Source: Candidatus Woesearchaeota archaeon (GTDB lineage Archaea; Nanobdellota; Nanobdellia; Pacearchaeales; GW2011-AR1). Taken from it: a stretch of DNA of 64,000 nt. The first letter of the stretch is position 1; each line of letters begins with the position of its first letter. Where the stretch lies: NCBI GenBank assembly GCA_964647695.1, contig CAZYIS010000001.1, positions 48,275 through 112,274 of the forward strand, given 5' to 3'. The notes under the pieces are model-generated. The model worked only from the letters and a program-made list of their open reading frames with translations, did no database searches and had not been told where the DNA came from. The translations under genes were made by a program, and so were the position numbers. Positions 3,340 to 24,674 of the stretch are shown here, piece after piece.

Positions 3340-4937
3340 TTTATATGTAACTCCCTTAGTTCTTCTTCATTTCCAAAATCAAGAATCTTTAGTTCGCGAG
3401 TTTTTAGATTTAAAACAGGAACTTTGCACGGCTCCGGAACATTTCCTACCTTTTCTTCGAAAGGTGTTTGTCCCTGCCAACAACTTCCAGTCATAATCAA
3501 TACACCATTATAATTTTCCACATCGATTCTGTGAACTTCCCCAGTACAAACCACATCCGGAACTTCACTAATCACAAGATTATCTTTTTCGGCATTTGGA
3601 ATATATATTGCTTCAGAGTGTAATGGAAATAGATGTCTTCTCTTCAGCATGTGCCTTACTGCCTTTGCCGGGCTAAGTTTTTGACTTCTCAATTCAGGAA
3701 TCTCATGAATAAATGTGTGTATGCTGTCTCCATGATACATTAATATTTTGAATTCCTTTTCATTTTCCAACAATTTTATCAAAGAAGGATTACTTACCAG
3801 AATTAAATTTTCTATATCATATAATGGTGCCGCATATCTTCTCCCAATTATGGGTTGAGGTTCGGCCACCCTTACCGCATCGTGCTGACCTGGACACATA
3901 AACATAGTAATATGTTTAGGTATTTGTTTAAGATAGGATGCTAGAAGAGCATACTGTTCCTCCATACTCTTTAATTTTAACAAATTTTCTTGACCTGGGA
4001 AAATACCTACTCCATCCACATTATCCCCTGAAATCATAATATATTTTATTTTCCTAGCAGTTTCATCGTTACTATTTATCCATTCCAAGAAGTTTTCAAA
4101 GCTCTTTTGCAAATGCTTGGCTCCACCAGCGTGAATATCCGAAAGAAAAGCCACATTAACTTCATTCTCAAATCTTACTTTTTCTCCATTGAAAGCATCT
4201 GGAAAAAATATATCATTAACAAATAGCATGTCCCTGCTTCCCGAAGCTCTGACTGCCACAATGTCATCCAATAAGAGCTCTTCCGCCTTTTTAAAAACTT
4301 CAACCTTATCGAATTTAATAAGAGTACTTATCTTTCCAGTTAAATCCTCAAAAGTAATTATTAAATTTTTATTTTTAGTTACTCTCTTTTCGCTAACAAT
4401 CCCTATGATAGTATAATTATTTCTATCGCTCCCTATCTTATTAATAGATACTAGATTCTGTAGGTCCGGTCTATTCATTAAAATCTTTTGTAGCTGATGA
4501 TATCTTGCTCTAAAATTACCTACAAAATCAGCCACCTCTAGTTTTTTATCATTTCTAGTTGTTGAATAAAATATTTTAAAGTCATTTCTAAGATTTTCCA
4601 AATTTTTTCTAGAAATATCCTTCAGCTTATCAAAATTCTCCTTTTTTTCAACTATTGCAGTTTCCTTAGTTATTTCTAAACTTAATCCTAATTTTATTAT
4701 TACATTTTCTACTTCAGTTTTAGATTCTCCATTCAAATTACTCACAAAATTCTTAACAAATCCAAAATTTTTGTTTAACACAGCACGATTTATTATTTTT
4801 TGACCTGAAAATCTTTCCAATCCTTCCAATAATTCTTTTGCATCCCTTGGATGTTGAAAGCTGTTCAATAAATCAAATATTTCTCTCTCTAATAACAATC
4901 CTTTCTCTCTTATTACATTCATTACTTCTTCTTTCAT
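3336..4937 (-). CDS. polD1: DNA polymerase II (PolD) small subunit DP1, calcineurin-like phosphoesterase exonuclease
   Basis: 533 aa. C-terminal phosphoesterase motifs (FLSDIHAGG, ISGDNVDGVG, CPGQHD, MYHGDS). N-terminal OB/linker region. Gene order polD2-polD1-cdc6-oriC. Confidence 0.85.
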   Translation of the reverse strand: MKEEVMNVIREKGLLLEREIFDLLNSFQHPRDAKELLEGLERFSGQKIINRAVLNKNFGFVKNFVSNLNGESKTEVENVIIKLGLSLEITKETAIVEKKENFDKLKDISRKNLENLRNDFKIFYSTTRNDKKLEVADFVGNFRARYHQLQKILMNRPDLQNLVSINKIGSDRNNYTIIGIVSEKRVTKNKNLIITFEDLTGKISTLIKFDKVEVFKKAEELLLDDIVAVRASGSRDMLFVNDIFFPDAFNGEKVRFENEVNVAFLSDIHAGGAKHLQKSFENFLEWINSNDETARKIKYIMISGDNVDGVGIFPGQENLLKLKSMEEQYALLASYLKQIPKHITMFMCPGQHDAVRVAEPQPIIGRRYAAPLYDIENLILVSNPSLIKLLENEKEFKILMYHGDSIHTFIHEIPELRSQKLSPAKAVRHMLKRRHLFPLHSEAIYIPNAEKDNLVISEVPDVVCTGEVHRIDVENYNGVLIMTGSCWQGQTPFEEKVGNVPEPCKVPVLNLKTRELKILDFGNEEELRELHIK

Positions 4938-4948
4938 TTTAGTTCCTA

Positions 4949-6157
4949 TTAAGAGTAAAGGGATTTTTCTAATATTTCTTTTGCTTTTTGTTTTATATTA
5001 GGTGCAAGCATGAGTTTTATTTCTCTCATCCTTCCATGCCTTCCTTTACTAATAACGTGAGTGTTAATCAAACCCAACATGTCAAATTCAGCCAAAATGT
5101 CTGAAACTCTTCTTTGGGTAAGTATTTCATTTTTAGTTTTTTCGCAAACTTCCTGATAATTATTATATACCTCTCCAGTAAATATATCACTATTGTTTTT
5201 TTGATCTGCTAAATTCATAATAGCATACAGAACCAATTGAAATTGTCTGGGTTCGCTTTCGATTATATCTAACATTTTATCTTTCTCTATTTTACTATTA
5301 GCCACGTCTATATGTAATAGAGTTATTTTCTTACTACTTTCTCTTTCAGCCAATTCTCCTGCAACCCTAAGTAAATCCAGCGCCCTTCTAGCATCTCCAT
5401 GCTCCCTAGCGGCATAGGCAGCACATTTAGCAATAACTCCTTCTTCCAGGATTGCATCTTTAAACGCACTATCTGCCCTTGCCTTTAATATATCTTGTAA
5501 TTGTAGGGCATTGTAGGGGGGAAATACTAGTTCTTCTTCTCCCAATGAACTCTTTACCCTAGGATCCAAATCATCCATAAACGTTAAACTATTACTTATA
5601 CCAATAATACTAATTTGAGCATTTTTTAATTCCGTATTTAATCTAGTAAGTGAATAAATGAATGTATCGGATATTTTTTTTACTGCTTGATCTATTTCAT
5701 CCAAAACCAAAATAACCATCTGTTTCTTATTATCAATTAATTCTACAAACCTCTTGTACACCTGATCCGTAGGCAATCCTGTAGAAGGCACATCTCCACC
5801 CAATTCACTTATAATTTCTGCCAACATTCTATATTCCGTATCTGCTACTTTCTTTAATTTACAATTAACATAAACAAACTTTAGACTATCTTCATCCGTT
5901 TTCTTCAAACGAGAAGTCATTTTACTAGCTACATGTTTAATAGATAGAGTTTTACCAGTTCCAGTTTTACCATAAACAAATAAGTTACTTACCTTTTCTC
6001 CTCTAAGAGCTGGAGCAAGTATGGATGCTATTAACTCAATCTGTTCATCTCTATGACCTATACTATCCGGATCATAATTTGATTGAAGCACAGTTTTATT
6101 TTTAAATAAATTATTATTTTCAAAAGAATCAAATATTGCATCTAATTTATCACTCAT
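4949..6157 (-). CDS. cdc6: Orc1/Cdc6 replication initiator (AAA+ with C-terminal winged helix)
   Basis: 402 aa. Walker A VYGKTGTGKT, Walker B VLVLDEID, sensor motifs. Lies directly beside an AT-rich intergenic region with ORB elements. Confidence 0.9.
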   Translation of the reverse strand: MSDKLDAIFDSFENNNLFKNKTVLQSNYDPDSIGHRDEQIELIASILAPALRGEKVSNLFVYGKTGTGKTLSIKHVASKMTSRLKKTDEDSLKFVYVNCKLKKVADTEYRMLAEIISELGGDVPSTGLPTDQVYKRFVELIDNKKQMVILVLDEIDQAVKKISDTFIYSLTRLNTELKNAQISIIGISNSLTFMDDLDPRVKSSLGEEELVFPPYNALQLQDILKARADSAFKDAILEEGVIAKCAAYAAREHGDARRALDLLRVAGELAERESSKKITLLHIDVANSKIEKDKMLDIIESEPRQFQLVLYAIMNLADQKNNSDIFTGEVYNNYQEVCEKTKNEILTQRRVSDILAEFDMLGLINTHVISKGRHGRMREIKLMLAPNIKQKAKEILEKSLYS

Positions 6158-6350
6158 TTTTACCTCTTTAATAAAAATTAGAACACTATCCTTATTATAA
6201 ACTTATCTATCCTCTAAGCATTGTTTCCTATGGAATAAAAAATAAGATTTTTGTATAATTTTTAAAAAAATCGAAAATACGACGATAATATGTTATTTTA
6301 CTAAAAATTATAGCTTTAATTTAAAAAAATAAATTCAAAAAATAGATTGA

Positions 6351-6380
6351 AACACCCACACCCTCACTTCCGTTGGAAAA
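6351..6380 (-). promoter_or_regulatory. ORB-like origin recognition box (reverse orientation)
   Basis: acacccacaccctcacTTCCGTTGGAAAaa. Dyad TTCCgtTGGAAA matches the ORB core tTCCAgTGGAAAc. The ACCC-rich tract is the complement of the ORB G-string. Confidence 0.6.
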
Positions 6381-6440
6381 ATAATTTAAAAAATATTTTA
6401 CGTGTAAACTGTTAATTAATAAGAACTTTAATATCTATTC

Positions 6441-6500
6441 TGTAATATATATAATATAATATATAATATATAATATATATATTTATAAATAAAAAATAGA
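6441..6500. repeat. (AT)n-rich duplex unwinding element-like tract
   Basis: tgtaatatatataatataatatataatatataatatatatattta lies between the two ORBs. Confidence 0.5.
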
Positions 6501-6543
6501 AAAAGAAAAAGTTAAAAAAATCATTTATAAATTTATTCATATA

Positions 6544-6576
6544 TTTCCAATAGAAATCATAGGGTGGGAGGGTAGG
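6544..6576 (+). promoter_or_regulatory. ORB-like origin recognition box (forward orientation)
   Basis: tTTCCAATAGAAAtcatagGGTGGGAGGGTAGG: ORB-like dyad followed by a G-string, inverted relative to the ORB at 6351-6380. Confidence 0.6.
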
Positions 6577-6752
6577 TCATTTTTTACTTTTTTCTATTAA
6601 TTTCATTCCTATTTCAATCTTTAATAATTCATTTTTAATTTTAAAAAAGTGCATTTCTAACTTTTTATCGTCTTTTTCTCTTGTTTCAGATACTAAAATA
6701 TATCTTAATGGATTATGGAAAAGTTTAAATATCATATCTTATACAATCAATT

Positions 6753-7013
6753 ATGACTTTAGACAAAAAACCACTAAAAGAGATCGTTGGAAAATTAGTT
6801 GTTACAAAAGAGGGTAAAAGATTAGGTATAGTTAAAGATATTACTTTTGAAACCAGAACTGGAGAATTAATTCAACTGGTAATAAAAGATCCTACACCTT
6901 ACACTAGAAATTTAAATTTAGAAGTTTCTTCTTCCAAGGACATATTAGTTCCTTATAATACAATAATTGCCATTGGTGATTTTGTAGTTATTTCAGAAGA
7001 AGACTTAGCTTAA
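6753..7013 (+). CDS. PRC-barrel domain protein
   Basis: 86 aa. Pattern VVTKEGKRLGIVKDITFETRTGELIQLVI is typical of small archaeal PRC-barrel proteins. Confidence 0.55.
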   Translation: MTLDKKPLKEIVGKLVVTKEGKRLGIVKDITFETRTGELIQLVIKDPTPYTRNLNLEVSSSKDILVPYNTIIAIGDFVVISEEDLA

Positions 7014-7026
7014 TCCTTCTTTCAAC

Positions 7027-7455
7027 ATGAATATTCTTGGTTTTAATTTTACTAAAATTTCAGCAGAAAAATCTGTCAAATTAGAAAACGTTCAAATCAA
7101 AACCAACATTAGTTTTGAAGATCCTAAAAAAGAAGATACTAAATTACTAAAAGATCAAGAGATAGTTAAATTTCCTTTTTCCTATGAAATAAAATATGAT
7201 TCTGAAGATCCTAAAACCAAGAAAGTTGAAACCAAAGCAGTTATTTCATTCAAAGGTTTAATTCTTCTATCCGGAACTAAAGAAGAAACCAAAGATCTAA
7301 TCAAAAATTGGAACTCAAAAGAATCCAATTCAGATCAAAAAGTAGGAATCATAAATACCATAATTCATAAATCTACTATTAAAGCATTAGCATTAGAAGA
7401 AGAACTTGATCTTCCATCCCACGTCAACCTACCAACCATTAAATTATCCAAATAA
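7027..7455 (+). CDS. hypothetical protein, Lys/Glu-rich
   Basis: 142-aa ORF. No recognisable motifs. Confidence 0.4.
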   Translation: MNILGFNFTKISAEKSVKLENVQIKTNISFEDPKKEDTKLLKDQEIVKFPFSYEIKYDSEDPKTKKVETKAVISFKGLILLSGTKEETKDLIKNWNSKESNSDQKVGIINTIIHKSTIKALALEEELDLPSHVNLPTIKLSK

Positions 7456-8163
7456 TTAGTTTAATTTTTTTAATTTACCAAATTCCAGCACTTTTAGGTT
7501 CTCACCAATAATTTTAACTTCAAATTCGTTTAATTTAAAATTCCAAGGCATTTCATTTTTCATATTTCTCACATCAATTCCTTCCTTTAGACCTGAAAAA
7601 CTAGGTAAAATTATAATTTTCTTGTCTTTCCATCGTCCTTCTAAAAAACATTTATATTTCTCGCTCTTGACTCCTTCCGTCAGAACTATTGCTGGATGCA
7701 GATGACCCATTATCCAATATTTAATCTTTTTATCATTTATTTCAGAAAAATCCCTATCTCCATGTAAAAAAGCATACTTTTCATTAATATAATAATCTAA
7801 AAGTTCAATTTTTCTTTTGGAAGTAAAATTAATTAAAAAATTATCATGGTTTCCCTTAGTAATTATTATTCTATCACATTTTTTCTCCAAATAATCAAAG
7901 AAATTAATAAAATCATTCCTTTCTTCTTGATTCAACTCTGAAAACTTGTTCTTTAAATCACCCAAAAGCACAATTTTATCTACTTTTCCAGTTTTATCAA
8001 ATATTTCATTCAAATCATCTAATATTTGACCATAAACTTCTCCAGACAAGATACTTCCCAATGATTCTTCTCCCACTCCAAAGTGCAAATCCCCTACTAC
8101 TAATATTTTTTCTTTATTTTCTTCAATCAGCAAACATTTTCCCATATATTTTATATTATTCAT
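7456..8163 (-). CDS. Metallophosphoesterase (calcineurin-like; MPE-type nuclease candidate) downstream of Lhr helicase
   Basis: 235 aa. Motifs LVVGDLHFG, LLGDL, GNHD, HGDRD, GHLHP. Co-oriented with and downstream of the lhr-like gene. Confidence 0.8.
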   Translation of the reverse strand: MNNIKYMGKCLLIEENKEKILVVGDLHFGVGEESLGSILSGEVYGQILDDLNEIFDKTGKVDKIVLLGDLKNKFSELNQEERNDFINFFDYLEKKCDRIIITKGNHDNFLINFTSKRKIELLDYYINEKYAFLHGDRDFSEINDKKIKYWIMGHLHPAIVLTEGVKSEKYKCFLEGRWKDKKIIILPSFSGLKEGIDVRNMKNEMPWNFKLNEFEVKIIGENLKVLEFGKLKKLN

Positions 8164-11254: not shown

Positions 11255-11587
11255 ATGCCCATCATATCCCAACAAAAAAAAGACAAAATATCTGAACAAA
11301 TACTACATTATCTTTTTGAAAACTCTCCCGAAAGCAAATTCACTTCCGACATAGCCAAAGAAATCGCTCGAGATGAAGAATTTATTAAAATAATTCTTGC
11401 TGATTTGTCAAAAAAAGGCTTAATCAATCTAATAACTAAAAATTCTTCCGGCGTTTCCTACCTAAAAAGACAAAGATGGCGTCTAAGCAATCAAGCATTC
11501 CAAATTTATTCCAATGCTCAGTCCCATAAAAACCAGAATGCTGTATTTCAGAATAACAATATTTATAATAACTCTGATGACTCTTGA
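11255..11587 (+). CDS. hypothetical small protein (possible winged-helix)
   Basis: 110 aa. Stop overlaps the start of the next ORF (ATGA-type overlap). Confidence 0.4.
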   Translation: MPIISQQKKDKISEQILHYLFENSPESKFTSDIAKEIARDEEFIKIILADLSKKGLINLITKNSSGVSYLKRQRWRLSNQAFQIYSNAQSHKNQNAVFQNNNIYNNSDDS

Positions 11588-12285
11588 ATTCTATGGACAA
11601 GGATCCAATTAAAGAAGCATTTACCCGCGCAAAAATTGATATTCAATCACTTAAAGACCAATTCTCTTCACTATTAAATGAAATTCAAGATATTAAACGA
11701 ACTCTCAATACTATATCTAATAAACCCTCAGACAGACAGATAGACCAACAGACAAACCAACAGATAAATAAGGCAGATATCCAACAAGAAGATGAATTAT
11801 ACGAACCTCCAACATCTGATTGGCCCTATAAACGTCTAAAACCCCATGTTTACAGACTTTCCACAAGAAATAGGGGGGTTCCAACAGACAGACAGACAAA
11901 CCAACAGACAGACAGACAAACACATAATAAAGGGAAAATCGACAAAATAGCAGCCATTGACCAGGTTTCCCAGATACTAGAATCCCTAGATTCCATGAAA
12001 AAAGAGCTCAGATCGAAGTTTAAACATTTAACCAATCAAGAAATGCTAGTTTTTTCAACCATCTATCAACTTGAAGAAGAAGGTTTTTCCGTCGATTATC
12101 CTCTAGTTTCTCAGAAATTAAGTCTTACCGAGTCATCCATACGAGATTATGTTCTTAAGCTAACAAAAAAAGGTATTCCCATCGGTAAAATCAAAGAAAA
12201 CAATAAGAAAATCTTCCTTAAAATCTCTTCAGAGTTCAAGAAATTGGCTTCTCTGGATACGATTTTAGCTTTGAGAGAATTATAA
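11584..12285 (+). CDS. coiled-coil protein with C-terminal MarR-like winged HTH and internal DRQTNQQT peptide repeats
   Basis: 233 aa. Repeats PSDRQIDQQTNQQ and DRQTNQQTDRQTH are encoded by CAGA-type tandem DNA repeats. C-terminal region reads as wHTH (LTNQEMLVFSTIYQLEEEGF...IRDYVLKLTKKG). Confidence 0.5.
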   Translation: MNSMDKDPIKEAFTRAKIDIQSLKDQFSSLLNEIQDIKRTLNTISNKPSDRQIDQQTNQQINKADIQQEDELYEPPTSDWPYKRLKPHVYRLSTRNRGVPTDRQTNQQTDRQTHNKGKIDKIAAIDQVSQILESLDSMKKELRSKFKHLTNQEMLVFSTIYQLEEEGFSVDYPLVSQKLSLTESSIRDYVLKLTKKGIPIGKIKENNKKIFLKISSEFKKLASLDTILALREL

Positions 12286-12597
12286 AAAATTAATTAACCG
12301 GTTAAACGAACAACGTTTAAGCTACGCTATTGCTAACCTCATCTTTCCAAAAAGCTAAAAATCAGCCCTTTTAAGCTCTATAAAGGCAAATCTTCAATTT
12401 TTCCTACAGTTTAAATCAGAGAAATTGATCATTTTGTTCCAATTTCTCCTCACTTTTGCTTGAACGTGAAAACCCTATTTTTCTATTAAACCTCATTCCG
12501 CCATTGTTTTTTGACACTATTACTCTCAAACTTTCGCTTTCAAGGCCCCTCAGTAAAACTCTCTCTTTTTGACTCAAATTGATCATTTTTTCCATAC

Positions 12598-13275
12598 TCA
12601 TGGGCCCTCACTTTTCACTTTTTCTGCTTCTTTTTCACTATTTTCATCATTTGACTTATTAACGCGAACCTTTTGACCCTTGTTAACTCTCACTTTTCCA
12701 TATTTTGCTAGTTTTTCACGTATTTCTGCCGGTACAAAGACCCTCTTTTTACCGTTTTTCTCTGTTATTTCCATAATTAATCCCTCATTCTTCTGTTTTA
12801 TAGCATTTATTTGTCCTCTTACGGTTGATCGCTCTTTTCCTAGTAAAAGTGCCAAATCTTCATAGCTTAGCTTCATTTCGCTGTTCATTAAGGTAAAAAT
12901 GAGGAGTCTTTCATTTGCACTAAGATTCTTTAGAATTTCGTAAAAATTGCCTGTTTGAACAGCTGTTTGAACAGCAATATCAACAGCTTCAACAGCTGTC
13001 TGTTTACCTAAAACAGCCGATTTCTTAAACACCTGTTTGTTTTTGTCGCCCTCAGAAACCACATCAACTCCTTCGCGCAAACTTTCGATCTCATCTTTAA
13101 TCGACGCTAATTCCAATTTTAACTCATTTAATACGTCAAACACCTGTTTGTCTCTCCCATCCAAGTACTTTATCCACTTTCCAACAGCATCAATATCTTT
13201 TTTAACAGAATTAAAACCTTCTTGAGTTTTTTCCTCAAGTTTATTTTCCTTTTTTTTAAATAACCAGTCTAACAT
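12598..13275 (-). CDS. coiled-coil protein with C-terminal winged HTH; contains QTAV repeats encoded by CAGCTGTTTG repeats
   Basis: 225 aa. C-terminal LSANERLLIFTLMNSEMKLSYEDLALLLGKERSTVRGQINAIKQ is wHTH-like. Convergent with the previous gene. Confidence 0.5.
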   Translation of the reverse strand: MLDWLFKKKENKLEEKTQEGFNSVKKDIDAVGKWIKYLDGRDKQVFDVLNELKLELASIKDEIESLREGVDVVSEGDKNKQVFKKSAVLGKQTAVEAVDIAVQTAVQTGNFYEILKNLSANERLLIFTLMNSEMKLSYEDLALLLGKERSTVRGQINAIKQKNEGLIMEITEKNGKKRVFVPAEIREKLAKYGKVRVNKGQKVRVNKSNDENSEKEAEKVKSEGP

Positions 13276-13772
13276 AATTATATATCAAGTCCTATACTAT
13301 ATAAACCTTACGTCTATAGCCTCTAAAACCGTCGATAACCTTTTTAATTTTTCATCAAAAAATGCTCAGACAAACACCCTTAAACAGCAGACAAACACCC
13401 TCTATGCTCCAAAAAACAGCTGTTTGAACACTCAAAAACACCTGTTTTATCAATAAAACTGCTTCAAACACTCTTAATTTTATTAAAAAATCATAAAAAA
13501 ATGCTCAAACTTTTAAGCAAAACCATTAATTTTGATTATCTATAAAAACCGTTAAAAATTAACAATTAAAAACCGTTAAAAATTGATAAAATCGATATTT
13601 TTAGCATATTTTCATCAAAAAATAACAAAACATTTAAATACCTCCTATTCCTATAATAAGTATACACCTCTTTTTCCCGGAGGAGGACGTTTGATCATTT
13701 AAATCTAGTACGATTAAACTTCCTCTTCTAGGAGTTCAACCTCTTTTTCAGACAAAAAGTTTAAAAACCTCC

Positions 13773-13985
13773 GTGTATTATAGATTATACGAGGACAAAA
13801 AAATAATAAATATGGTAAAATATGGTTCAATTTGGTCAACATCAGACATTTTTTGTCAAAAATGTCACAAAAACACCCGCGGAGTACAATTGAAAAGTAT
13901 AGAAATGGCAAAACATGGTCTTTCTTTAGAACTTTGTAGCTCGTGTATCTCCGAAATTGCCAGTGATTCTTCAAATTTCGTCTAA
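13773..13985 (+). CDS. small zinc-ribbon protein (CxxC...CxxC)
   Basis: 70 aa with CQKCH and CSSC pairs. Preferred over the overlapping antisense 93-aa ORF 13714-13995, which looks like junk. Confidence 0.3.
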   Translation: MYYRLYEDKKIINMVKYGSIWSTSDIFCQKCHKNTRGVQLKSIEMAKHGLSLELCSSCISEIASDSSNFV

Positions 13986-14001
13986 AAATTAACAAAAAAC
14001 G

Positions 14002-14253
14002 ATGAAAATACTAAAAACCAAACGATCCTTCCGGAAGGAGTTCCGCAGACAGATCAAAATGGCCCTTGTTGCAGCCATCGGATTCACCATTGCCTTTGCC
14101 TGGAGGGATTCTTTGTCCCAAATTCTTGAAAAAACCGCTGAAAACCTAGGTTACGAAGTTGGTTTGGGCTCTTCGCCCCTTTTTATGCCTTTTTTAACCA
14201 CAATTTTAGGCGTTTTGCTCATAATCCTACTCTCAAAAATCTTTTCCGACTGA
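14002..14253 (+). CDS. small membrane protein
   Basis: 83 aa, two hydrophobic helices. Immediately upstream of mscL. Confidence 0.45.
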   Translation: MKILKTKRSFRKEFRRQIKMALVAAIGFTIAFAWRDSLSQILEKTAENLGYEVGLGSSPLFMPFLTTILGVLLIILLSKIFSD

Positions 14254-14274
14254 TTTTTCAGCCCGTTAAGGTCT

Positions 14275-14619
14275 ATGAAAGGAGGTATCATCATGGTAGT
14301 TCAAAAAAGCATAGGTTTAGCCAAAGAATTCAGAGAATTTTTGAAAGAATATAAGGTCATAGGACTCGCTGTTGCCGTAATCATGGGTTTTGCAGCCAAT
14401 ACAATGATCAAATCTTTAGTTGATAACATAATAATGCCCCTAATAACTCCATTTATACCTGGAGGAGCCTGGCAAACAGCCGTTTGGAATTTCTGGGTCT
14501 GGAAAGGAATCGCCTGGGGATCGTTTTTATCAGCTTTAATCTACTTCCTCATCATAGCATTGGTTGTTTTCCTCATATCCAAGTTCATGCTTAAGGAAGA
14601 AAAGGTAACTAAGAAGTAA
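14275..14619 (+). CDS. mscL: large-conductance mechanosensitive channel MscL
   Basis: KEFREFLKEYKVIGLAVAVIMGFAANTMIKSLVDNIIMPLI matches the MscL N-terminus/TM1 signature. Two TM helices, about 110 aa. Confidence 0.8.
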   Translation: MKGGIIMVVQKSIGLAKEFREFLKEYKVIGLAVAVIMGFAANTMIKSLVDNIIMPLITPFIPGGAWQTAVWNFWVWKGIAWGSFLSALIYFLIIALVVFLISKFMLKEEKVTKK

Positions 14620-14636
14620 ACAGCTGTTTATTCTTA
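14617..14636 (+). terminator. palindromic TAAACAGCTGTTTA hairpin overlapping the mscL stop, followed by a T-rich tract
   Basis: Inverted repeat centred on CAGCTG. Same core as the 19446 element. Confidence 0.4.
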
Positions 14637-14684
14637 TCATTTAAACACCCATAAGCTTATATTTTTCATTTTTTTATTATATTT

Positions 14685-15164
14685 ATGCCACAAAAGGGGC
14701 TAGATAGGCAATCCGAACTCGAATCCCTTTCCCTAGAAGAGGTTCAAAGACGAAAAAACTGGAGACAAAGTCATCCAATTTATAGGAATTACGCACGCGG
14801 AAATCCGGTTGAACATCAACAAGCGGAGCTGTCCATTGGAAGGACGGACATCGAATTCAAACACCTTCCCCAACACCCGGAGAACATAGACCTCAATCCA
14901 GGAAAGCAAGGTCCAAGCCAACAGCTGTTGGACTCCGCATTACCCTATTCTTTTCATTCTCCAAAAAAAGGAAAGTCTCATTTTAGAAGAACCATCTTCC
15001 AAACAACCTATAGACATGGAGTTAACCAGCTCCTAAAAACCAAAGGCATTAATCCCTATGAGTGGGAACCTTTTGATAATTTTGTAATTATCTCAGCAGA
15101 AGAATCAGATTTTTTAGAAAATTTAGTCAAGGTATTCCCAGAATATTATGCTCAAACCTTCTAG
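14685..15164 (+). CDS. hypothetical protein (GC-elevated island gene)
   Basis: 159 aa. Local GC about 45% against a roughly 30% background. Amino-acid usage is Arg/Gln/His/Pro-rich, unlike the host core. Confidence 0.45.
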   Translation: MPQKGLDRQSELESLSLEEVQRRKNWRQSHPIYRNYARGNPVEHQQAELSIGRTDIEFKHLPQHPENIDLNPGKQGPSQQLLDSALPYSFHSPKKGKSHFRRTIFQTTYRHGVNQLLKTKGINPYEWEPFDNFVIISAEESDFLENLVKVFPEYYAQTF

Positions 15165-15280
15165 CATCGCTAACAACTTTAATTCACCTATAAAGTTCGG
15201 TTAATTATCCAAAATCTTACCAAAAAACCACTGCCTTTTAACAATTATTTTCAGCCATTTTAGCCTAATTTCATGGAAAA

Positions 15281-15290
15281 GTATAAAAAC
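15281..15290 (+). promoter_or_regulatory. TATA-like box GTATAAAAAC 30 nt upstream of ATG (leaderless-type promoter)
   Basis: cgAAAAGTATAAAAAC module repeated at 15758 and 17077. Confidence 0.45.
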
Positions 15291-15310
15291 TCGGCAGGGG
15301 TTAAATTTTT

Positions 15311-15652
15311 ATGGAAATAAAACCTCAAGATTTTCGTGGAAGTCTAGCAGCAATGCCTTTACAGGCAATGATAAGAGAAGAGCAGGAGCAGAATTCTCGA
15401 TATTCAGAAGAACACTGGAAATGGTACTGTGCACGAGCAGATAGACTTGAAAGAACAATATTTGGAACTTTAGCATTGGCTTCTGAAATGGTGGCTGCTT
15501 CTTACCTATACTCTGGGCTTACACTTAATAATCCAAAAGATTATCTAGATGCAGGAATTGTTGGTTTATTTGGCTTATTTTCTGGTGCCACAAGCTATTC
15601 CGCGCATAGATCTTTGCGTAAAACAAGCCAAAAACCAGCAGTTTCTAACTAA
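15311..15652 (+). CDS. hypothetical protein, cassette-like (shared promoter and C-terminal SQKPAVSN tail)
   Basis: 113 aa. Preceded by a GTATAAAAAC TATA-like box 30 nt upstream of the ATG. C-terminus and 3' flank shared with 15788-16057. Confidence 0.45.
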   Translation: MEIKPQDFRGSLAAMPLQAMIREEQEQNSRYSEEHWKWYCARADRLERTIFGTLALASEMVAASYLYSGLTLNNPKDYLDAGIVGLFGLFSGATSYSAHRSLRKTSQKPAVSN

Positions 15653-15757
15653 TTCTCAAGTTCGTTTAATCAAAAGGCAGCCAGGTGTCCTAAAAAATAA
15701 TAACTTCAGTCCATGTGAGGCCGAAGGCCGAACGCGCCCGGCATAAAACATCGAAAA

Positions 15758-15767
15758 GTATAAAAAC
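15758..15767 (+). promoter_or_regulatory. TATA-like box GTATAAAAAC 30 nt upstream of ATG
   Basis: Same module and spacing as 15281. Confidence 0.45.
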
Positions 15768-15787
15768 GCAACAATGGTTAATTTTTT

Positions 15788-16057
15788 ATGAAAGGATTTT
15801 ATATATTAAAAAGACCGGAAGGAAAGCCAATAGGCAGACCAAAATTGGTTTCCAGAGATGTTCCTTTTGATAGGGAAGATCTAGAGTTTAAAGTCAAATT
15901 AAGTCGCCCAAGAGGAGCAAACGCAGGATTAATCTCTGACGATTCTGATCGTCATTATGAAAAGCGCTCAATGGGATCATCACATATAAAAGCAAATTAT
16001 GTTACCTATGCAGTTCAGTACTATAAAATAAGCCAAAAACCCGCAGTTTCTAGCTAA
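15788..16057 (+). CDS. hypothetical protein, cassette-like (shared promoter and C-terminal SQKPAVSS tail)
   Basis: 89 aa. Identical promoter spacing to 15311. Shared C-terminal ISQKPAVSS and 3' flank. Confidence 0.45.
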   Translation: MKGFYILKRPEGKPIGRPKLVSRDVPFDREDLEFKVKLSRPRGANAGLISDDSDRHYEKRSMGSSHIKANYVTYAVQYYKISQKPAVSS

Positions 16058-16160
16058 AGGAGGAGTTCGCCTAATCACTCTTAACTGCCGTTTTGAGGTC
16101 CCTAACGTCGAAAGTACGCTTTAATCGATACATTTTTATACTCTTACTCTAATCAGACTT

Positions 16161-16445
16161 ATGGATAATTTAGTTTACAAATTAGAATTAGAAATAAAAG
16201 GTATGAAACTTCCAGGAGTTATAGAAGTACATGACGCATTACCTGTGGAAAAGCAAGTGTTATATCTAAATGATAATTTTAAAACTATTGCAAGTATAGA
16301 ATCTGGATACTATGTAGTTACTCAAGTAGTCAGATCTTTAGATTTGACTTTTTCAGATAGACGTCTAAAAAGGGCAGAACAATTAGATTTGCCGGTTGTT
16401 TTTGCAACATACTTTGGTAGAAATAGACCTCCAAAGTCAGAATAA
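16161..16445 (+). CDS. hypothetical protein
   Basis: 94-aa ORF in the repeat-rich island. Confidence 0.4.
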   Translation: MDNLVYKLELEIKGMKLPGVIEVHDALPVEKQVLYLNDNFKTIASIESGYYVVTQVVRSLDLTFSDRRLKRAEQLDLPVVFATYFGRNRPPKSE

Positions 16446-16506
16446 TTCTTATAGCTTAATCTTTCAATCACTGCTTAGAACTTTCAGCATAGATATAAAG
16501 TTCGTT

Positions 16507-16800
16507 TTAATACTCTCTAGGTAATTCGTTAGTTTGAAAATTTATGAATGCATCAACATGATCCTTTTCTAATTTTCTTCTAGTTCTGGAAACTATATAT
16601 GAAAGTAATGTTGAACCATAGCAAATAGGTGTCGCAACATCCACTATATCTGCAGCTATTCTTTCTTCAGCTTCAGGTAGTCTTCCGCCAGACATTGACT
16701 CTCCAGCAAGTTTGCTTACTCCATAAACTCCAACTAATCCTGAAACTAACGATGTCGTTACAAGACCTATTTCAATTTTTCTTAATAATCCTTTTACCAT
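16507..16800 (-). CDS. hypothetical membrane protein
   Basis: 97 aa. Hydrophobic N-terminus. Flanked on both sides by GTTCGTTTAAT motif copies. Confidence 0.4.
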   Translation of the reverse strand: MVKGLLRKIEIGLVTTSLVSGLVGVYGVSKLAGESMSGGRLPEAEERIAADIVDVATPICYGSTLLSYIVSRTRRKLEKDHVDAFINFQTNELPREY

Positions 16801-17076
16801 ATTATTTTAGTAAAACCTAGATTAATAAATCTTTCCGCTCAAACTTTCTAGCGCAAAAGAAGGGTTCGTTTAATTAATCAGAAAATTAAAAGTTCGCATA
16901 ACTAGTCTTTCATAATCTTTATATACTTCCTATGCTTTAGTATATTGTATCTACGGATACACCTCTTTTTCCCAGGAGAAGGAGTTTGACCAAATTCTAA
17001 ACAAACTCAGGTTGATCTCCTCTCTTGGAACATTTAATAATATTATATCGGAAGGGTTCGTTTAATTTTTAGAAAG

Positions 17077-17086
17077 GTATAAAAAC
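17077..17086 (+). promoter_or_regulatory. TATA-like box GTATAAAAAC 18 nt upstream of ATG
   Basis: Same module as 15281 and 15758. Confidence 0.4.
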
Positions 17087-17094
17087 GCTTTAGA

Positions 17095-17460
17095 ATGATA
17101 AAATTTATGCACAAAATAGGAAATACAAATTGCAGATTAGACATTTATGAAGTTCAAGGAGATATTGGAAAAGCAGTTCTTCGCCATTTATCCACAAGAG
17201 ATACTCTAGTAGAATATACTCCTAGAATAGGCAATAGTGCTGAACATTATTTTTCTATATCTATAGAAAGAGAAGGTTCTCAAAGGGAAGTTGTAATGCC
17301 TTATAGAGAAGCTAACTTTAGTGAAACTCTGAAAAGATTTTATGCTGCTGCTAAAAGAGTATTTAAAAAAGAAACTAATGAAAATGAATTAGCTGATTCA
17401 ATGAATTTAGTAAGAACTTTAAATGGTTCCCCTCAGCCAATTCTTAGTCCAAGTTACTAA
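17095..17460 (+). CDS. hypothetical protein
   Basis: 121 aa. Preceded by the same GTATAAAAACGC promoter module. Confidence 0.45.
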   Translation: MIKFMHKIGNTNCRLDIYEVQGDIGKAVLRHLSTRDTLVEYTPRIGNSAEHYFSISIEREGSQREVVMPYREANFSETLKRFYAAAKRVFKKETNENELADSMNLVRTLNGSPQPILSPSY

Positions 17461-17712
17461 TAAAATAATTAATTTTATTTCTTTTTTAGAATAAGTTTGC
17501 CTTTTTCAGTTTCTACTATCAATTCATCTCCGGCTTTAAACCCTGTTTGGCTTAGAATAACCTCTGGAACATTGATTTTATACTTATAATATGCTTGCCC
17601 TTTATACTCTCTAGATTTTTCTTTTAGTATTTTCATAATTAAAAAAGTGAGAATAACTATTTAAACTTTTAGAGACCGAAAGATTTATATACTTTAGAGA
17701 CCTAAATATATA

Positions 17713-18195
17713 ATGGTTAAGGGTTTATGTGTTAATTGTAAGAAAGAAAAAGAAATAGCTTTATCCGGAAAAGCAAAAGGATTGTGTAAAGTTTGTTATA
17801 AAAAATTAATTTGGAAACCTAAATTAATAGAATGTAAACGGTGCAAAAGAATGTTACCTAATCAGGCATTTGGTTTTTGTAAAAGCTGTTATCTCTCGGT
17901 CTTTCATATGGATAGAATGAAAGAACATAGTATTAAACAACATCACAATATTGATCCTAAATTATGGAAAGAAATAACTAAAAAATGTGTCGTTTGTGGT
18001 TTCGATAAAATAGTAGATTTACACCATCTAGATCACAATCATGATAATAATTCTAGGGAAAATCTTATAGGTTTATGCCCTAATCATCATAGAATGATTC
18101 ACAATATAAAAACTAGAAAAGAAGTATTAGATATTTTGAAGGAAAATGGATATGTTCCTCTTGAAAAATATCTAGATAACGAGTTCTATAAATAA
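17713..18195 (+). CDS. HNH endonuclease with N-terminal Cys4 zinc-ribbon pairs
   Basis: 160 aa. Four CxxC pairs. HNH motif DLHHLDHNHDNNSRENLIGLCPNHHRMIH. Confidence 0.75.
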   Translation: MVKGLCVNCKKEKEIALSGKAKGLCKVCYKKLIWKPKLIECKRCKRMLPNQAFGFCKSCYLSVFHMDRMKEHSIKQHHNIDPKLWKEITKKCVVCGFDKIVDLHHLDHNHDNNSRENLIGLCPNHHRMIHNIKTRKEVLDILKENGYVPLEKYLDNEFYK

Positions 18196-18245
18196 TACTT
18201 TTCAGTTTTCCATATGTATTTAAAACCCTATTTTATGAGATTTTC

Positions 18246-18737
18246 ATGGAAAATTTAATAAAATTAGAACAATTACCCTATGCCCGAGATCTAAATTTAA
18301 TTCTAAATTATCTAAAACTAGTTTTTCCTGATTTTCCAGAAAGAAATTGTCAGGATGCAGCTAGAATTACTTCAAGAGTAACTAAGTTAAGAGAGCTGGC
18401 CGGTTATTTTAGTGAAATACCTGGACAAAGCAGGGAAGAATGGCACGCTTGGAACTATGATCCTGAAAGAAAAATAATTGTAGATTTAACAGGTAAGCAA
18501 TTAGCAGAAGATTTACCTGAAATATTTATTACTTCTAAGCATGATCCCCGATATAGATTAACCCTAAGTAATACTCGTGAAGCACGAAGCGAATATGGCT
18601 GGTTTTGTGAACCTTCTTTTCTAAAAGATTACTATGCCTATGCTAAAAATCCTGAAAGATTCTACCTGGATGGAAGAAAAAAGATTATTAGAGATTTAGT
18701 TCCTGTTTCTTTAGACCTAGCATTGCAAATATCCTGA
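18246..18737 (+). CDS. hypothetical protein
   Basis: 163 aa. Co-oriented string downstream of the HNH gene. Confidence 0.45.
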   Translation: MENLIKLEQLPYARDLNLILNYLKLVFPDFPERNCQDAARITSRVTKLRELAGYFSEIPGQSREEWHAWNYDPERKIIVDLTGKQLAEDLPEIFITSKHDPRYRLTLSNTREARSEYGWFCEPSFLKDYYAYAKNPERFYLDGRKKIIRDLVPVSLDLALQIS

Positions 18738-18795
18738 TTAAAGGTCCAAAGCCAAGATTTAAATATTCAGAAAAAGAAATTTTCTAGCAAACAAC

Positions 18796-19110
18796 ATGTT
18801 AAACGGAGAAATTAATTTGGAAAATGTAGCAAAAAATGCTTACTTTGGAGCCCAGGGCAATACAATCAATGTAGTCTATGGTTTAGACATGGGTAGAGTT
18901 CAATATAAGGAATTTAGATTATCTGATGGAATATTTCTTACTTCCTTGGGCACAACCCTGGATGATTTTAAAACAAGATGTACTTCGGTTGTTCCTACAG
19001 AAGAAGTTAAAAGATTAGTCTATGAAACCAGAACTCCTCTTAGTATCAGTTTATTAGAAGAACAGGTGTTTGTTAACGCTAGAAACGATCAATTAACGGG
19101 GGCTGATTAA
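18796..19110 (+). CDS. hypothetical protein
   Basis: 104-aa ORF. Stop is 1 nt before the next start. Confidence 0.4.
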   Translation: MLNGEINLENVAKNAYFGAQGNTINVVYGLDMGRVQYKEFRLSDGIFLTSLGTTLDDFKTRCTSVVPTEEVKRLVYETRTPLSISLLEEQVFVNARNDQLTGAD

Positions 19111-19111
19111 A

Positions 19112-19447
19112 ATGAGTCTAATAAACAAAATTCAAAAAGGAATTGTTCTCGGAGCATCATCCGCCATACTATTAGGATTCGCAGGAGTTACATATTTTGG
19201 CAGCCAACATACTAAAGCCCAAGATGATTTGATGTCTTCTTCTAATATTACAGATTATCCTGCCCTTATGCAAGATTTAAACACAAAAATAGAATATTCT
19301 GCAGATTTAACCATTGCCGGCGGAGCCCTATTGGGACTTTATGGTCTTGGTTCTTTAATAAATCGAAGAAGAGACGCACAAAATAATCAAAAATTAATCA
19401 ATCTATTAAGACTGGTTGCTGATGAAAGAAGCAATGCTAAAAATTAA
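19112..19447 (+). CDS. hypothetical two-TM membrane protein
   Basis: 111 aa. Followed immediately by a perfect palindrome, AAACAAACAGCTGTTTGTTTTT. Confidence 0.45.
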   Translation: MSLINKIQKGIVLGASSAILLGFAGVTYFGSQHTKAQDDLMSSSNITDYPALMQDLNTKIEYSADLTIAGGALLGLYGLGSLINRRRDAQNNQKLINLLRLVADERSNAKN

Positions 19448-19467
19448 ACAAACAGCTGTTTGTTTTT
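19446..19467 (+). terminator. perfect palindrome AAACAAACAGCTGTTTGTTTTT directly after a stop codon (intrinsic-terminator-like)
   Basis: 10-bp inverted repeat plus T5. Confidence 0.45.
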
Positions 19468-19511
19468 ATCCTAAACAAAAGTTTTAAAAGAGATTAATTT
19501 ATGCTATTTTT

Positions 19512-19874
19512 ATGAAACTTGAAGATATTACTCCAGAATTAAAGGAAGGAGAGTTAGTTTTAATAAAAACTACTCAAAATTCTCATGCCCTGGGTACATT
19601 CAGCGATGGAAATGAAAAGAGAATATTCTTACATCAACCATCCTATTATCTAGGAAAACCAGTCAATCTAGACGGAAAGATCAAACTAGAAGTTTCTCCC
19701 GGAATAGATTCTCGTTCCTATAGTCAAATAGGCCAAATTTATCGTGGAAAGAAAGAAATTGTAAAATACTTAGAATCCCATCCCGATCTAAAAGGTCATG
19801 CCGATTGGGTTAAAAAACTAGATGCTCCATTTGAATTACCAAAAACCGATGTTCTACGTACACTAAGATTATAA
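19512..19874 (+). CDS. hypothetical protein
   Basis: 120-aa ORF. Confidence 0.45.
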   Translation: MKLEDITPELKEGELVLIKTTQNSHALGTFSDGNEKRIFLHQPSYYLGKPVNLDGKIKLEVSPGIDSRSYSQIGQIYRGKKEIVKYLESHPDLKGHADWVKKLDAPFELPKTDVLRTLRL

Positions 19875-19938
19875 TTTTTATAGCCCAGTAGTGATTTTTA
19901 CCAATTAACTTTAAATATCCTTCAAAAGTGAGATTTTT

Positions 19939-20460
19939 ATGACAAACAAAGCAAATTTTAATAGATTGTTGGAAAATCTATTCCATCCCGAAGGAGTTAC
20001 TCTAGAAATTGCTGAAAATAATCGTATCCAACTTCCAGTTAACTATGTTTGGACTCCTAGTGGCACTTACATATTACATAATTACTCTCCTAAGGAGTTA
20101 GCTTCATTAAAAATAAACTCACCTAACTTTATCCCTGACAAACCCTATAAATATATTCCTAAGGCAAGACTATCTTTTGATAGGTCCATGTCCCCTAATG
20201 AATTTAGAGAAAATAATTTAATGGTTGCCACTTTTGGTGATAGCGGAGCCGATACTCTTGCAGATATTGCTCGACAGTTTTCTCAAAAACCCTATATATT
20301 TGGACATCAAATCGGAGAAAATCATCCTTCTATTCTTTCAAGTTTAGCTTTAGACCTTCCATTTGTCTCGGGCGGTTTAGTCGTACACGCAAATGCCTAT
20401 GCCAATTCAGATGGCTATATAATCAATCATTTTAAACCTGAAGTTTATCATTTCGATTAG
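19939..20460 (+). CDS. hypothetical protein
   Basis: 173-aa ORF. Confidence 0.45.
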   Translation: MTNKANFNRLLENLFHPEGVTLEIAENNRIQLPVNYVWTPSGTYILHNYSPKELASLKINSPNFIPDKPYKYIPKARLSFDRSMSPNEFRENNLMVATFGDSGADTLADIARQFSQKPYIFGHQIGENHPSILSSLALDLPFVSGGLVVHANAYANSDGYIINHFKPEVYHFD

Positions 20461-20527
20461 TTCGTTCAAGCTCACTTAACAGAATTTTAATACATACCTC
20501 TATATACTTGAGAGTGTTTGATATAAT

Positions 20528-20674
20528 ATGGTAGCAATCAGTTTAACAGTATCTGCATTGCTTGCAGTAATCTTTGGAATTCTTATATTAATGTTCCCAA
20601 AAATGCTTAATAATTTAGTAGGATTATGGTTATTAGTTTTCGGAATTCTACAATTGATTAATATTTATTATTAA
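20528..20674 (+). CDS. small two-helix membrane protein (DUF3096-like)
   Basis: 48 aa, MVAISLTVSALLAVIFGILILMFPKMLNNLVGLWLLVFGILQLINIYY. Below the ORF-track length cutoff; read directly from sequence. Confidence 0.35.
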   Translation: MVAISLTVSALLAVIFGILILMFPKMLNNLVGLWLLVFGILQLINIYY

Positions 20675-20680
20675 ATCTTT

Positions 20681-21223
20681 TTAATCTACAGAAACAACTT
20701 CTTCTAAAGGTTCTACCAATCTTAGAGTTCCATTTTCAAAATCTCTATTCATAGCATCATTAAGTTCTTTTAATTCTTCAGCACTATAATAATTTCCTCT
20801 ATCTTTCCATTTTTGTTTTCCATCGGCCCAAGCACACCACGGCGATATTTCAAAAGCTTTTCTAGCCAAATATTTATCATTTAACTTAAACTTAACTGGA
20901 AGTCTGCTTTCTCTATGTTTTTGAGATGCCAAATCATAGATTTTACTTAATGCCCTAATTAATAATGCTTCTTGACTATCATCCAAATCAACTCTTTTCA
21001 CAGGATCTGGAGTTCCCACATTACTATAGGGCCCCGCGCCATACCAATAATTAGTTTTATGCATATCCATAACAAATCTTCCTTCACTAGGTCTTACCGA
21101 TAGACAAACATCTTCCAAATCTTTCTTTCCATCTTCTCTCACCCAAATATGATATCCTCTAGGTTGATTTGGAAGTCTAACATCTCCACCTTCAATTACT
21201 AGAATATGTTTATTACTTTCCAT
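20681..21223 (-). CDS. hypothetical protein, C-terminal part of an ORF interrupted by a single in-frame TAA
   Basis: 180 aa. The ATG at 21223-21221 abuts the TAA (21226-21224) of the upstream ORF in the same frame. Confidence 0.4.
   Translation of the reverse strand: MESNKHILVIEGGDVRLPNQPRGYHIWVREDGKKDLEDVCLSVRPSEGRFVMDMHKTNYWYGAGPYSNVGTPDPVKRVDLDDSQEALLIRALSKIYDLASQKHRESRLPVKFKLNDKYLARKAFEISPWCAWADGKQKWKDRGNYYSAEELKELNDAMNRDFENGTLRLVEPLEEVVSVD

Positions 21224-24601: not shown

Positions 24602-24674
<73 letters not shown>

Follow-up and report, generated by a model that had tools for sequence, protein, structure and literature searches.

Small RNAs that occur as sibling copies and mask Shine-Dalgarno (SD) sites with C/U-rich seeds are known from bacteria: LhrC1-5 of Listeria, RsaE of Staphylococcus, and the NmsRs of Neisseria. 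Other bacterial small RNAs form divergent pairs with the gene of a regulator, as in OxyR-OxyS and GcvA-GcvB. The 3' end of 16S rRNA is the anti-SD sequence, GAUCACCUCCU. In archaea, small RNAs of Methanosarcina, Haloferax, and Sulfolobus (sRNA162, sRNA154) are thought to pair near translation starts. We describe two intergenic elements in a window of 64 kb (the whole stretch of DNA analyzed), which we read as candidate genes of a small structured RNA that has not been described before and belongs to Pacearchaeota-type (DPANN) archaea.

We infer that this RNA works most like a sibling small RNA with a CU-rich seed that is also one half of a divergent regulator-RNA pair. As with LhrC1-5, RsaE, and the NmsRs, several paralogs stand close together, and each combines a separate predicted promoter with a compact, stable hairpin and an invariant, unpaired CU-rich segment that is complementary to GGAG-type ribosome-binding sites. 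Unlike those RNAs, with which there is no sequence homology, the family has an archaeal host and a TATA-box promoter, its putative seed forms the very 5' end of the RNA instead of being placed in loops, and it lacks a Rho-independent terminator. The arrangement resembles OxyR-OxyS and GcvA-GcvB in that the RNA stands head-to-head with a gene for a helix-turn-helix-type protein, with palindromic candidate operators between the two; it differs in that the regulator is DPANN-specific and unrelated, with no Pfam domain and a weak Lrs14-like signal, and in that the palindromes lie ~200 nt from the RNA promoter and are present also in loci that have no RNA. The tail of many members begins with AUCACCUC, which we take to be 8 nt identical to the general anti-SD sequence, the comparison being with that sequence because the window contains no 16S gene; the window copies share CACCUC. 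In contrast to the 16S 3' end, the motif of the family is at the 5' end, is followed by U4-6 and a hairpin, and lies outside any rRNA operon. Like sRNA162 and sRNA154, this is a small intergenic RNA of archaea that is proposed to pair with messengers close to where translation begins; the sequences are not homologous, the lineage is DPANN, the hairpin is far more regular, and the family is known here from comparative genomics alone.

Both elements lie on the + strand, copy 1 at 13660-13742 and copy 2 at 16955-17040, and they belong to a single RNA family. The 17-nt sequence ATACACCTCTTTTTCCC has two exact occurrences in the 64-kb window, at 13662 and 16957, both on the + strand. A sequence-only reading of this DNA had pointed to two conserved intergenic copies with ~85% identity over the first ~35 nt, and this value is recovered in a gapped alignment that allows two 1-nt gaps; a repeat finder gives 78% ungapped identity over 41 nt. 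In the gapped alignment, the likeness runs further upstream, through TTTAAATA (13633) in copy 1 and TTTATATA (16918) in copy 2, plus CYTCCTAT. The placement of both copies upstream of + strand genes also holds: the 3' end of copy 1 is ~72 nt ahead of the ATG at 13812, and that of copy 2 is 60-72 nt ahead of the ATG at 17095 or 17107. In a search of 506 kb, the covariance model scores copy 1 at 83.5 bits (E ~5e-20) and copy 2 at 60.7 bits (E ~1e-13); both were among the sequences that built the model, and it is the 20+ copies from other organisms that lend independent support.

The window has a GC content of ~32% and carries archaeal chromosomal genes (Cdc6/Orc1, PolD small subunit, FttA/aCPSF1, Mre11/Rad50, an archaeal CCA-adding enzyme, and ArgRS) along with genes for an Lhr helicase, MscL, and a DUF5654 protein. 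Its many small ORFs had suggested a phage or prophage context, a reading set aside for want of a match in phage records and in view of the archaeal chromosomal genes. Since the host is archaeal, promoters were read as TATA boxes, and a reading as bacterial sigma-70 sites was dropped. The cdc6/orc1 gene (4949-6157, - strand) adjoins the PolD small-subunit gene; GC content falls to 25% at 6001-8000, and positions 3336-8000 are likely a replication origin region.

In copy 1, the TATA box TTTAAATA (13633-13640, +) is invariant across a four-lineage alignment in which its flanks diverge; its role as a promoter is predicted from sequence, with a transcription start predicted at ~A13662. The single-stranded 5' tail AUACACCUCUUU (13662-13673, +) consists of an anti-SD-like CACCUC core and then a U-tract. 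The hairpin (13674-13734, +), supported by the minimum free energy (MFE) fold and by family covariation, is built from the 5' arm UUCC-C-GGAGGAGGA-C-GUUUGAUC, a 15-nt loop, and the 3' arm GAUUAAAC-U-UCCUCUUCU-A-GGAG; it folds at -25.8 kcal/mol (z = -4.7 versus shuffles; opposite strand z = -1.1). The second CCTCT block singled out in the sequence-only reading is kept and is the 3' strand of this hairpin, GAUUAAAC-U-UCCUCUUCU. The CCTC...GAGG hairpin proposed there did not survive as a conserved pairing: it is with that 3' strand that the purine block GGAGGAGGA-C-GUUUGAUC pairs instead.

Copy 2 has the same parts. Its TATA box TTTATATA (16918-16925, +) stands at 10 nt more distance from the core than in copy 1, and orthologues of copy 2 in two related loci (L011 and L013) have an identical 34-nt TATA spacing and conserve TATATTGTATCTACGG. 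The 5' tail AUACACCUCUUUUUC (16957-16971, +) is unpaired in the fold. In the MFE fold, the hairpin (16972-17028, +) has the 5' arm CCAGGAGA-A-GGAG-U-UUGACC, an 18-nt loop, and the 3' arm GGUUGA-U-CUCC-UCUCUUGG, at -24 kcal/mol (z = -3.4; opposite strand z ~-1.1). Between copy 1 and copy 2, the apical helix undergoes a U-A to C-G double change.

Relatives were collected by a metagenome scan seeded with an alignment of the 225-aa protein encoded beside copy 1, which yielded 80 loci; copies of the element were sought by regex and then with a covariance model (R1, from alignment A5) and were accepted at E < 1e-6. The family counts 25 distinct full-length copies, which come from a set of 19 metagenome loci and metagenome-assembled genomes (MAGs), the RNA being present also in GCA_964356675.1 and GCA_016186375.1 (Candidatus Pacearchaeota archaeon). 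A second-round model (R2) returned no more distant members from the 80 loci. The DNA of the window itself recurs in ENA and NCBI assemblies, including GCA_037135175.1. One of these records, ENA contig k141_82010 (L001, 1060-1074), is identical to the window until its end and then continues with CTGTCTCTTATACACA, presumably a Nextera adapter remnant and hence an assembly artefact in the public record.

In contigs with close homologues of the 225-aa protein, the element occupies the same place, upstream of the gene and encoded on the strand opposite to it. No change is seen there in the TATA box or in ATACACCTCTTTT, and the hairpin is conserved, while the surrounding intergenic DNA has diverged; the syntenic spot is kept across lineages in which the neighboring protein is 64-98% identical. 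Additional copies and conservation in relatives, whose absence would have spoken against the sequence-only reading, were thus found, the syntenic position being conserved even where the neighboring protein is just 64-77% identical. The RNA lies 253-387 nt upstream of the 225-aa gene, and divergent from it, in 18 of the 64 loci that have at least 500 nt upstream of that gene. In the other 46 it is absent within the available sequence, and the RNA is therefore not essential to the regulator gene. Sibling copies occur 1-3 kb further on in the window and in L011, L013, L016, L079, and L094, giving 2-3 copies per locus (three in L016).

The family belongs to no described family and is a candidate for a new family of small RNAs. 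A scan of the window at Rfam gathering thresholds returned only tRNA-Thr, at 24602; a scan of 12200-20800 against Rfam 15 at E<=10 gave two noise matches, both away from the element, and a scan of seven related loci at E<=1 gave none. Viral contigs (IMG/VR) held neither the exact pattern ACACCTCTTTTTCCCN{0,1}GGAG nor a looser family pattern. In GTDB representative genomes, the exact pattern had nine matches, all in unrelated bacteria and about as many as the estimated chance number. The literature on small RNAs of DPANN or Pacearchaeota and on anti-SD-mimic small RNAs yielded nothing relevant.

Across the family, the parts stand in a regular order. In 22/25 copies, the TATA 8-mer is 22-25 nt ahead of the CACCUC core, a spacing from which a start at the A or U just ahead of the core is predicted; copies of the copy-2 type have 10 extra nt in this interval. 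The 5' tail, (A)U(A)CACCUCUUUU(U)CC, is nearly invariant over the 25 copies and is unpaired in MFE and consensus folds. It reads AUCACCUC in at least 6 distinct copies of alignment A7 and in the L040/L061 variant lineage; in the window copies it is AUACACCUC, with 6 nt identical to the anti-SD sequence, not 8. The stem of ~20 bp pairs CCC-A-GGAGAGGA-C-GUUUGAUC with GAUUAAAC-C-UCCUCUUC-N-GGG around a loop of 10-20 nt without conservation, and conservation ends at the stem base. No consistent oligo-T terminator follows the hairpin; T-rich stretches are frequent, with T5 within 40 nt in about half of the copies, and the RNA is predicted to be ~75-90 nt long.

A variant lineage of the RNA (L040 1259-1390, L061/L063 3594-3722, and L065 1069-1197, all on the - strand) has the TATA box and a AUCACCUCUUUUCC tail at unchanged spacing. 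Two extra hairpins, CAACAC-GAGA-GUGUUG with a GAGA loop and a second stem, are inserted between the tail and the main hairpin, for a total of ~125 nt and ~-50 kcal/mol. This insertion indicates that tail and hairpin are separate modules of one predicted transcript.

Evidence for an RNA comes from the pattern of substitution in the stem. In alignment A7, standard pairs occupy 95.3% of the stem cells and 10/18 pairs have double changes; none of 500 shuffles equaled these values, and slid registers were 46-65% paired. A7 was fitted to the covariance model, so these pairing values are not independent of it; an independent MAFFT/RNAalifold run on 13 sequences gave the same helix. Compensatory changes and a covariance-model search with both copies and their homologs were among the checks suggested with the sequence-only reading: the search produced the 25 distinct full-length copies, and the RNAalifold run showed 5 compensatory pairs. 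Strand is read from the same cells, of which 64 (14%) are G-U versus 8 A-C, so that the paired fraction, 95.3% in this orientation, drops to 82.8% for the complementary strand; these many G-U pairs assign the RNA to the + strand. Together with syntenic conservation, the extra copies, and the TATA spacing, the compensatory changes and the strand-specific G-U pairs support an RNA gene, and with it the earlier suggestion of a functional non-coding element (a small RNA, riboregulator, or protein-binding site). The tail is invariant, the stem positions covary, and the loop drifts, as one would expect if a pairing seed were carried by a stable scaffold.

The gene divergent from copy 1 (12598-13275, - strand) encodes a 225-aa protein with a coiled-coil N-terminus and a winged-helix-like C-terminus, a candidate regulator. 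It has 1945 homologues, whose source labels are archaeon, Nanoarchaeota, and Candidatus Pacearchaeota; the protein lacks a Pfam domain, and its profile matches the Lrs14-like winged-helix regulator 6cmv weakly (E 0.015). These labels place the host among Pacearchaeota-like DPANN archaea. Between this gene and the RNA lie the palindromes AACAGCTGTT (13415-13424) and AACACCTGTT (13437-13446), which are candidate operators. The same palindromes are found in the regulator-RNA intergenic region of nearly all related loci, with the RNA present or absent, and the protein of the divergent gene is their putative binder. Palindromes of the AACAGCTGTT/AACACCTGTT kind also occur at 14619 and 19451 and, within the regulator gene, at 12950-13010 and 13027-13150. 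The AACAGCTGTT-type palindromes that are in tandem inside the gene encode the invariant peptide AVQTAVQT, so that here a DNA motif and a conserved protein motif coincide. Tandem CAGACAGACAGA/CAAACCAACAGA repeats occupy 11717-11935, inside a 233-aa ORF (11584-12285), and related CAGACAAACACCC motifs are intergenic at 13367-13400. In the MAG GCA_964356675.1 (L094, 3803-4843), a LAGLIDADG_3 homing-endonuclease-type ORF sits just upstream of the Lhr helicase gene; the corresponding place in the window is without it.

Other explanations compete with that of a small RNA that pairs with messengers; we rank them in the order of a protein-binding RNA, a read-through attenuator, and a recombination site acting as DNA. 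The first, which we hold unlikely, is a structured RNA with a role as RNP component, sponge, or decoy, in which mRNA pairing is not the function; its partner might be an Sm-like protein bound to the U-tract, a protein that binds dsRNA, or an enzyme whose normal substrate is the 3' end of 16S rRNA. The stem sequences GAGGACGUUU and CUCCUCUU are nearly invariant beyond the need of pairing and two mismatches recur at fixed positions, which suggests recognition by a protein, something that the pairing model does not need; moreover, the U-tract adjoins the stem, and a duplex scan of the window produced no convincing mRNA target. Yet no candidate partner is consistently encoded beside the extra copies, the sole constant neighbor resembles a DNA-binding winged-helix protein, and pairing seeds typically take the form of such an invariant, unpaired, CU-rich end. 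Slightly less probable still is a cis-acting 5' leader or attenuator, in which the promoter of the element would drive the downstream array and read-through would be set by hairpin formation, for instance through binding of the SD-like arm GGAGAGGA by the 30S subunit or by the tail. Under such a model, the element would be expected to keep its downstream genes, and these vary by locus: a zinc-ribbon protein, a homologue of the 159-aa ORF, small membrane proteins, or other non-coding modules lie 3' of the syntenic copy. A promoter-like TATA box of its own was present for the downstream gene in each of the three loci examined. For copy 2 of the window, it is GGTATAAAAAC (17077), ~27 nt ahead of the ATG at 17107, a leaderless arrangement, and for the gene that follows copy 1 it is a TTTAAAAA box at 13759; in L018, the zinc-ribbon gene is leaderless. 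Variable downstream genes with promoter-like boxes of their own make an independent small RNA, rather than a leader, most likely. Attenuation draws on the co-directionality of the element with the downstream small genes, on blocks within it that resemble SD and anti-SD and are complementary to each other (AGAGG in the 5' arm is a possible partner for CCUCU of the tail), and on the U-rich stretches often found 3' of the stem. Against this stand copy b of L013, which faces a convergent gene, the long hairpin (~-25 kcal/mol) that outweighs the alternative pairing, and the end of conservation at the hairpin base.

We consider it improbable that the element acts as DNA, whether as a recombination site or transposon end (attC-like or IS200/IS605-like) that bounds mobile cassettes or as an operator of a transcription factor. 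The copies do lie among small same-strand ORFs in a variable array whose inter-gene modules are repeated and which has an indel right after copy 2, the L096 array includes toxin-antitoxin genes, and both copies have the same orientation, as IS200/IS605 ends do. However, the G-U cells that make up 14% of the stem would fail to pair in DNA or if the other strand were read; the TATA box is at a fixed distance and the syntenic position is stable across diverged lineages; and there is neither an integrase or TnpA/TnpB gene nearby, nor an attC core site (RYYYAAC or GTTRRRY) at the stem ends, nor a match in viral contigs. Less probable than any of these is a tiny protein encoded on either strand. On the reverse strand, both window copies do have ORFs of 15-18 codons through GGGAAAAAGAGGTGTA, but the lengths of the U-tract (4-6) and of the loop vary among copies and shift the frame, which rules out a conserved ORF on either strand; on the + strand, the UUG "start" is unconserved, many copies having UUUAAUC, and the substitutions compensate pairs and are not codon-like.

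Several known classes were considered and rejected. A box C/D small RNA is excluded by the absence of a C box (RUGAUGA) and a D box (CUGA) in all 25 aligned copies, and a box H/ACA RNA by a stem that is continuous save two single mismatches and has no conserved ACA after it. An integron attC site does not fit the missing core sites, the 64 G-U cells, or neighbors without an integrase; IS200/IS605 or PATE-type ends do not fit just 2 copies in 64 kb, stable synteny, and the lack of a transposase between or near the copies. The riboswitch or cis-regulatory leader class was dropped because downstream genes vary, some with their own promoter and one convergent, and readings as a DGR template or variable repeat and as a split tRNA were ruled out by sequence features.

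Upstream of the regulator gene, the window (13600-20500), L096 (1-4300), and L013 (1-5500) carry the variable array of small same-strand ORFs. Its promoter modules are repeated (GAAAAGTATAAAAAC ~27 nt ahead of the ATG, a leaderless arrangement), as are its inter-gene modules GCTCAAACYTTYTAGC and ACCAAAAAACCACTGC. The L096 array has PemK, PIN, and ParE toxin genes. The layout is integron-like, with no integrase seen. After RNA copy 2 and a GGAAGGGTTCGTTTAAT motif, ~1.17 kb of the window (~17070-18240) is missing from the 97%-identical L011 (~970-1030); the segment looks like a cassette-type indel and contains a 117-aa ORF, an AbrB-like 53-aa ORF (17475-17636, - strand), and a 160-aa ORF (17713-18195) with an HNH-like motif read by eye and a weak Pfam match to RecA_dep_nuc.

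Two further repeated sequences belong to these arrays. A second conserved intergenic element, GC-rich and of the form ..AUAGCCUCAAUAAAUG-GAGGCGCGAAGCGCC-GACCGCGCCCGACAU.., is located at 15690-15750 (+) of the window in the orientation of the hairpin RNA. It has ~75 further copies in loci L011-L093 (for example, L016 2416(-), L018 3104/2436/1657(-), and four in L078) and the following gene usually has its BRE/TATA 5-12 nt further downstream. Its small hairpin covaries through arm swaps (GGCGC/GCGCC, GCGCC/GGCGC, GGCCC/GGGCC); the opposite strand shows a hairpin with a UUCG/UNCG loop and then a T-run, which is terminator-like. Rfam has no match to it. The motif [AG]GTTCG(N2-4)TAA occurs in sense orientation shortly after stop codons, on the + strand of the window at 15194, 15659, 16064, 16499, 16863, 16891, and 17055; these 7 intergenic + strand occurrences in 1.9 kb compare with ~3.6 expected as the mean for the whole window on both strands. 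Two of them flank RNA copy 2, and the motif is present in related loci too. Its sequence is similar to that of the inner 5' arm of the RNA hairpin (GACGTTTAATCA versus GTTCGTTTAATCA).

Our preferred reading, held tentatively and at a little under an even chance, is that the copies are sibling small RNA genes with their own TATA promoters, whose tail would be a trans-acting seed that masks SD sites. Transcription of each copy would begin at (A)U(A)CACCUC or immediately ahead of it, and the tail would pair with the purine-rich SD regions (AAAGGAGGU or AAAGAGGU) of the minority of messengers that are SD-led. Such pairing would compete with the 30S subunit and thereby reduce translation of those messengers. 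The hairpin, with its SD-like purine strand GGAGAGGA-C-GUUUGAUC set against a CU-rich strand, may serve stability, protein binding, or both. The divergent winged-helix protein probably controls transcription of the RNA via the AACAGCTGTT palindromes. Transcription, the 3' end, the targets, and the link to the regulator are all putative here.

Candidate targets for the pairing small RNA are few in the window, where SD-led genes are MscL, a small membrane protein, cdc6, and one more. With the strong SD sites AAAGGAGGU in the window, at 14269 (MscL) and 62434, the tail could form 9-10 bp. In the duplex scan, SD sites reached ~-12 kcal/mol, no better than several coding-region sites, and the window offered no outstanding, specific, or conserved target. 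In relatives, small membrane-protein genes, which often follow the locus, carry very strong SDs.

A bolder reading, which we regard as doubtful, takes the RNA for a mimic of the anti-SD in a mostly leaderless lineage: its 5' end would copy the 3' terminus of 16S rRNA and its stem would hide an SD-like strand. Such an RNA might globally gate SD-led translation or report free 30S subunits, and it would head an integron-like cassette array under a lineage-specific regulator.

The identity between tail and anti-SD yields a testable hypothesis, namely that organisms dominated by leaderless genes may control their few SD-dependent genes with an RNA. At the same time, the family stands at the head of a variable small-gene array with repeated inter-gene modules. 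DPANN archaea are uncultivated, their genomes are small, and almost no regulatory RNAs have been described from them; here, a candidate RNA family can be defined from sequence alone, by a promoter, an invariant tail, a covarying hairpin, and synteny with a lineage-specific regulator.
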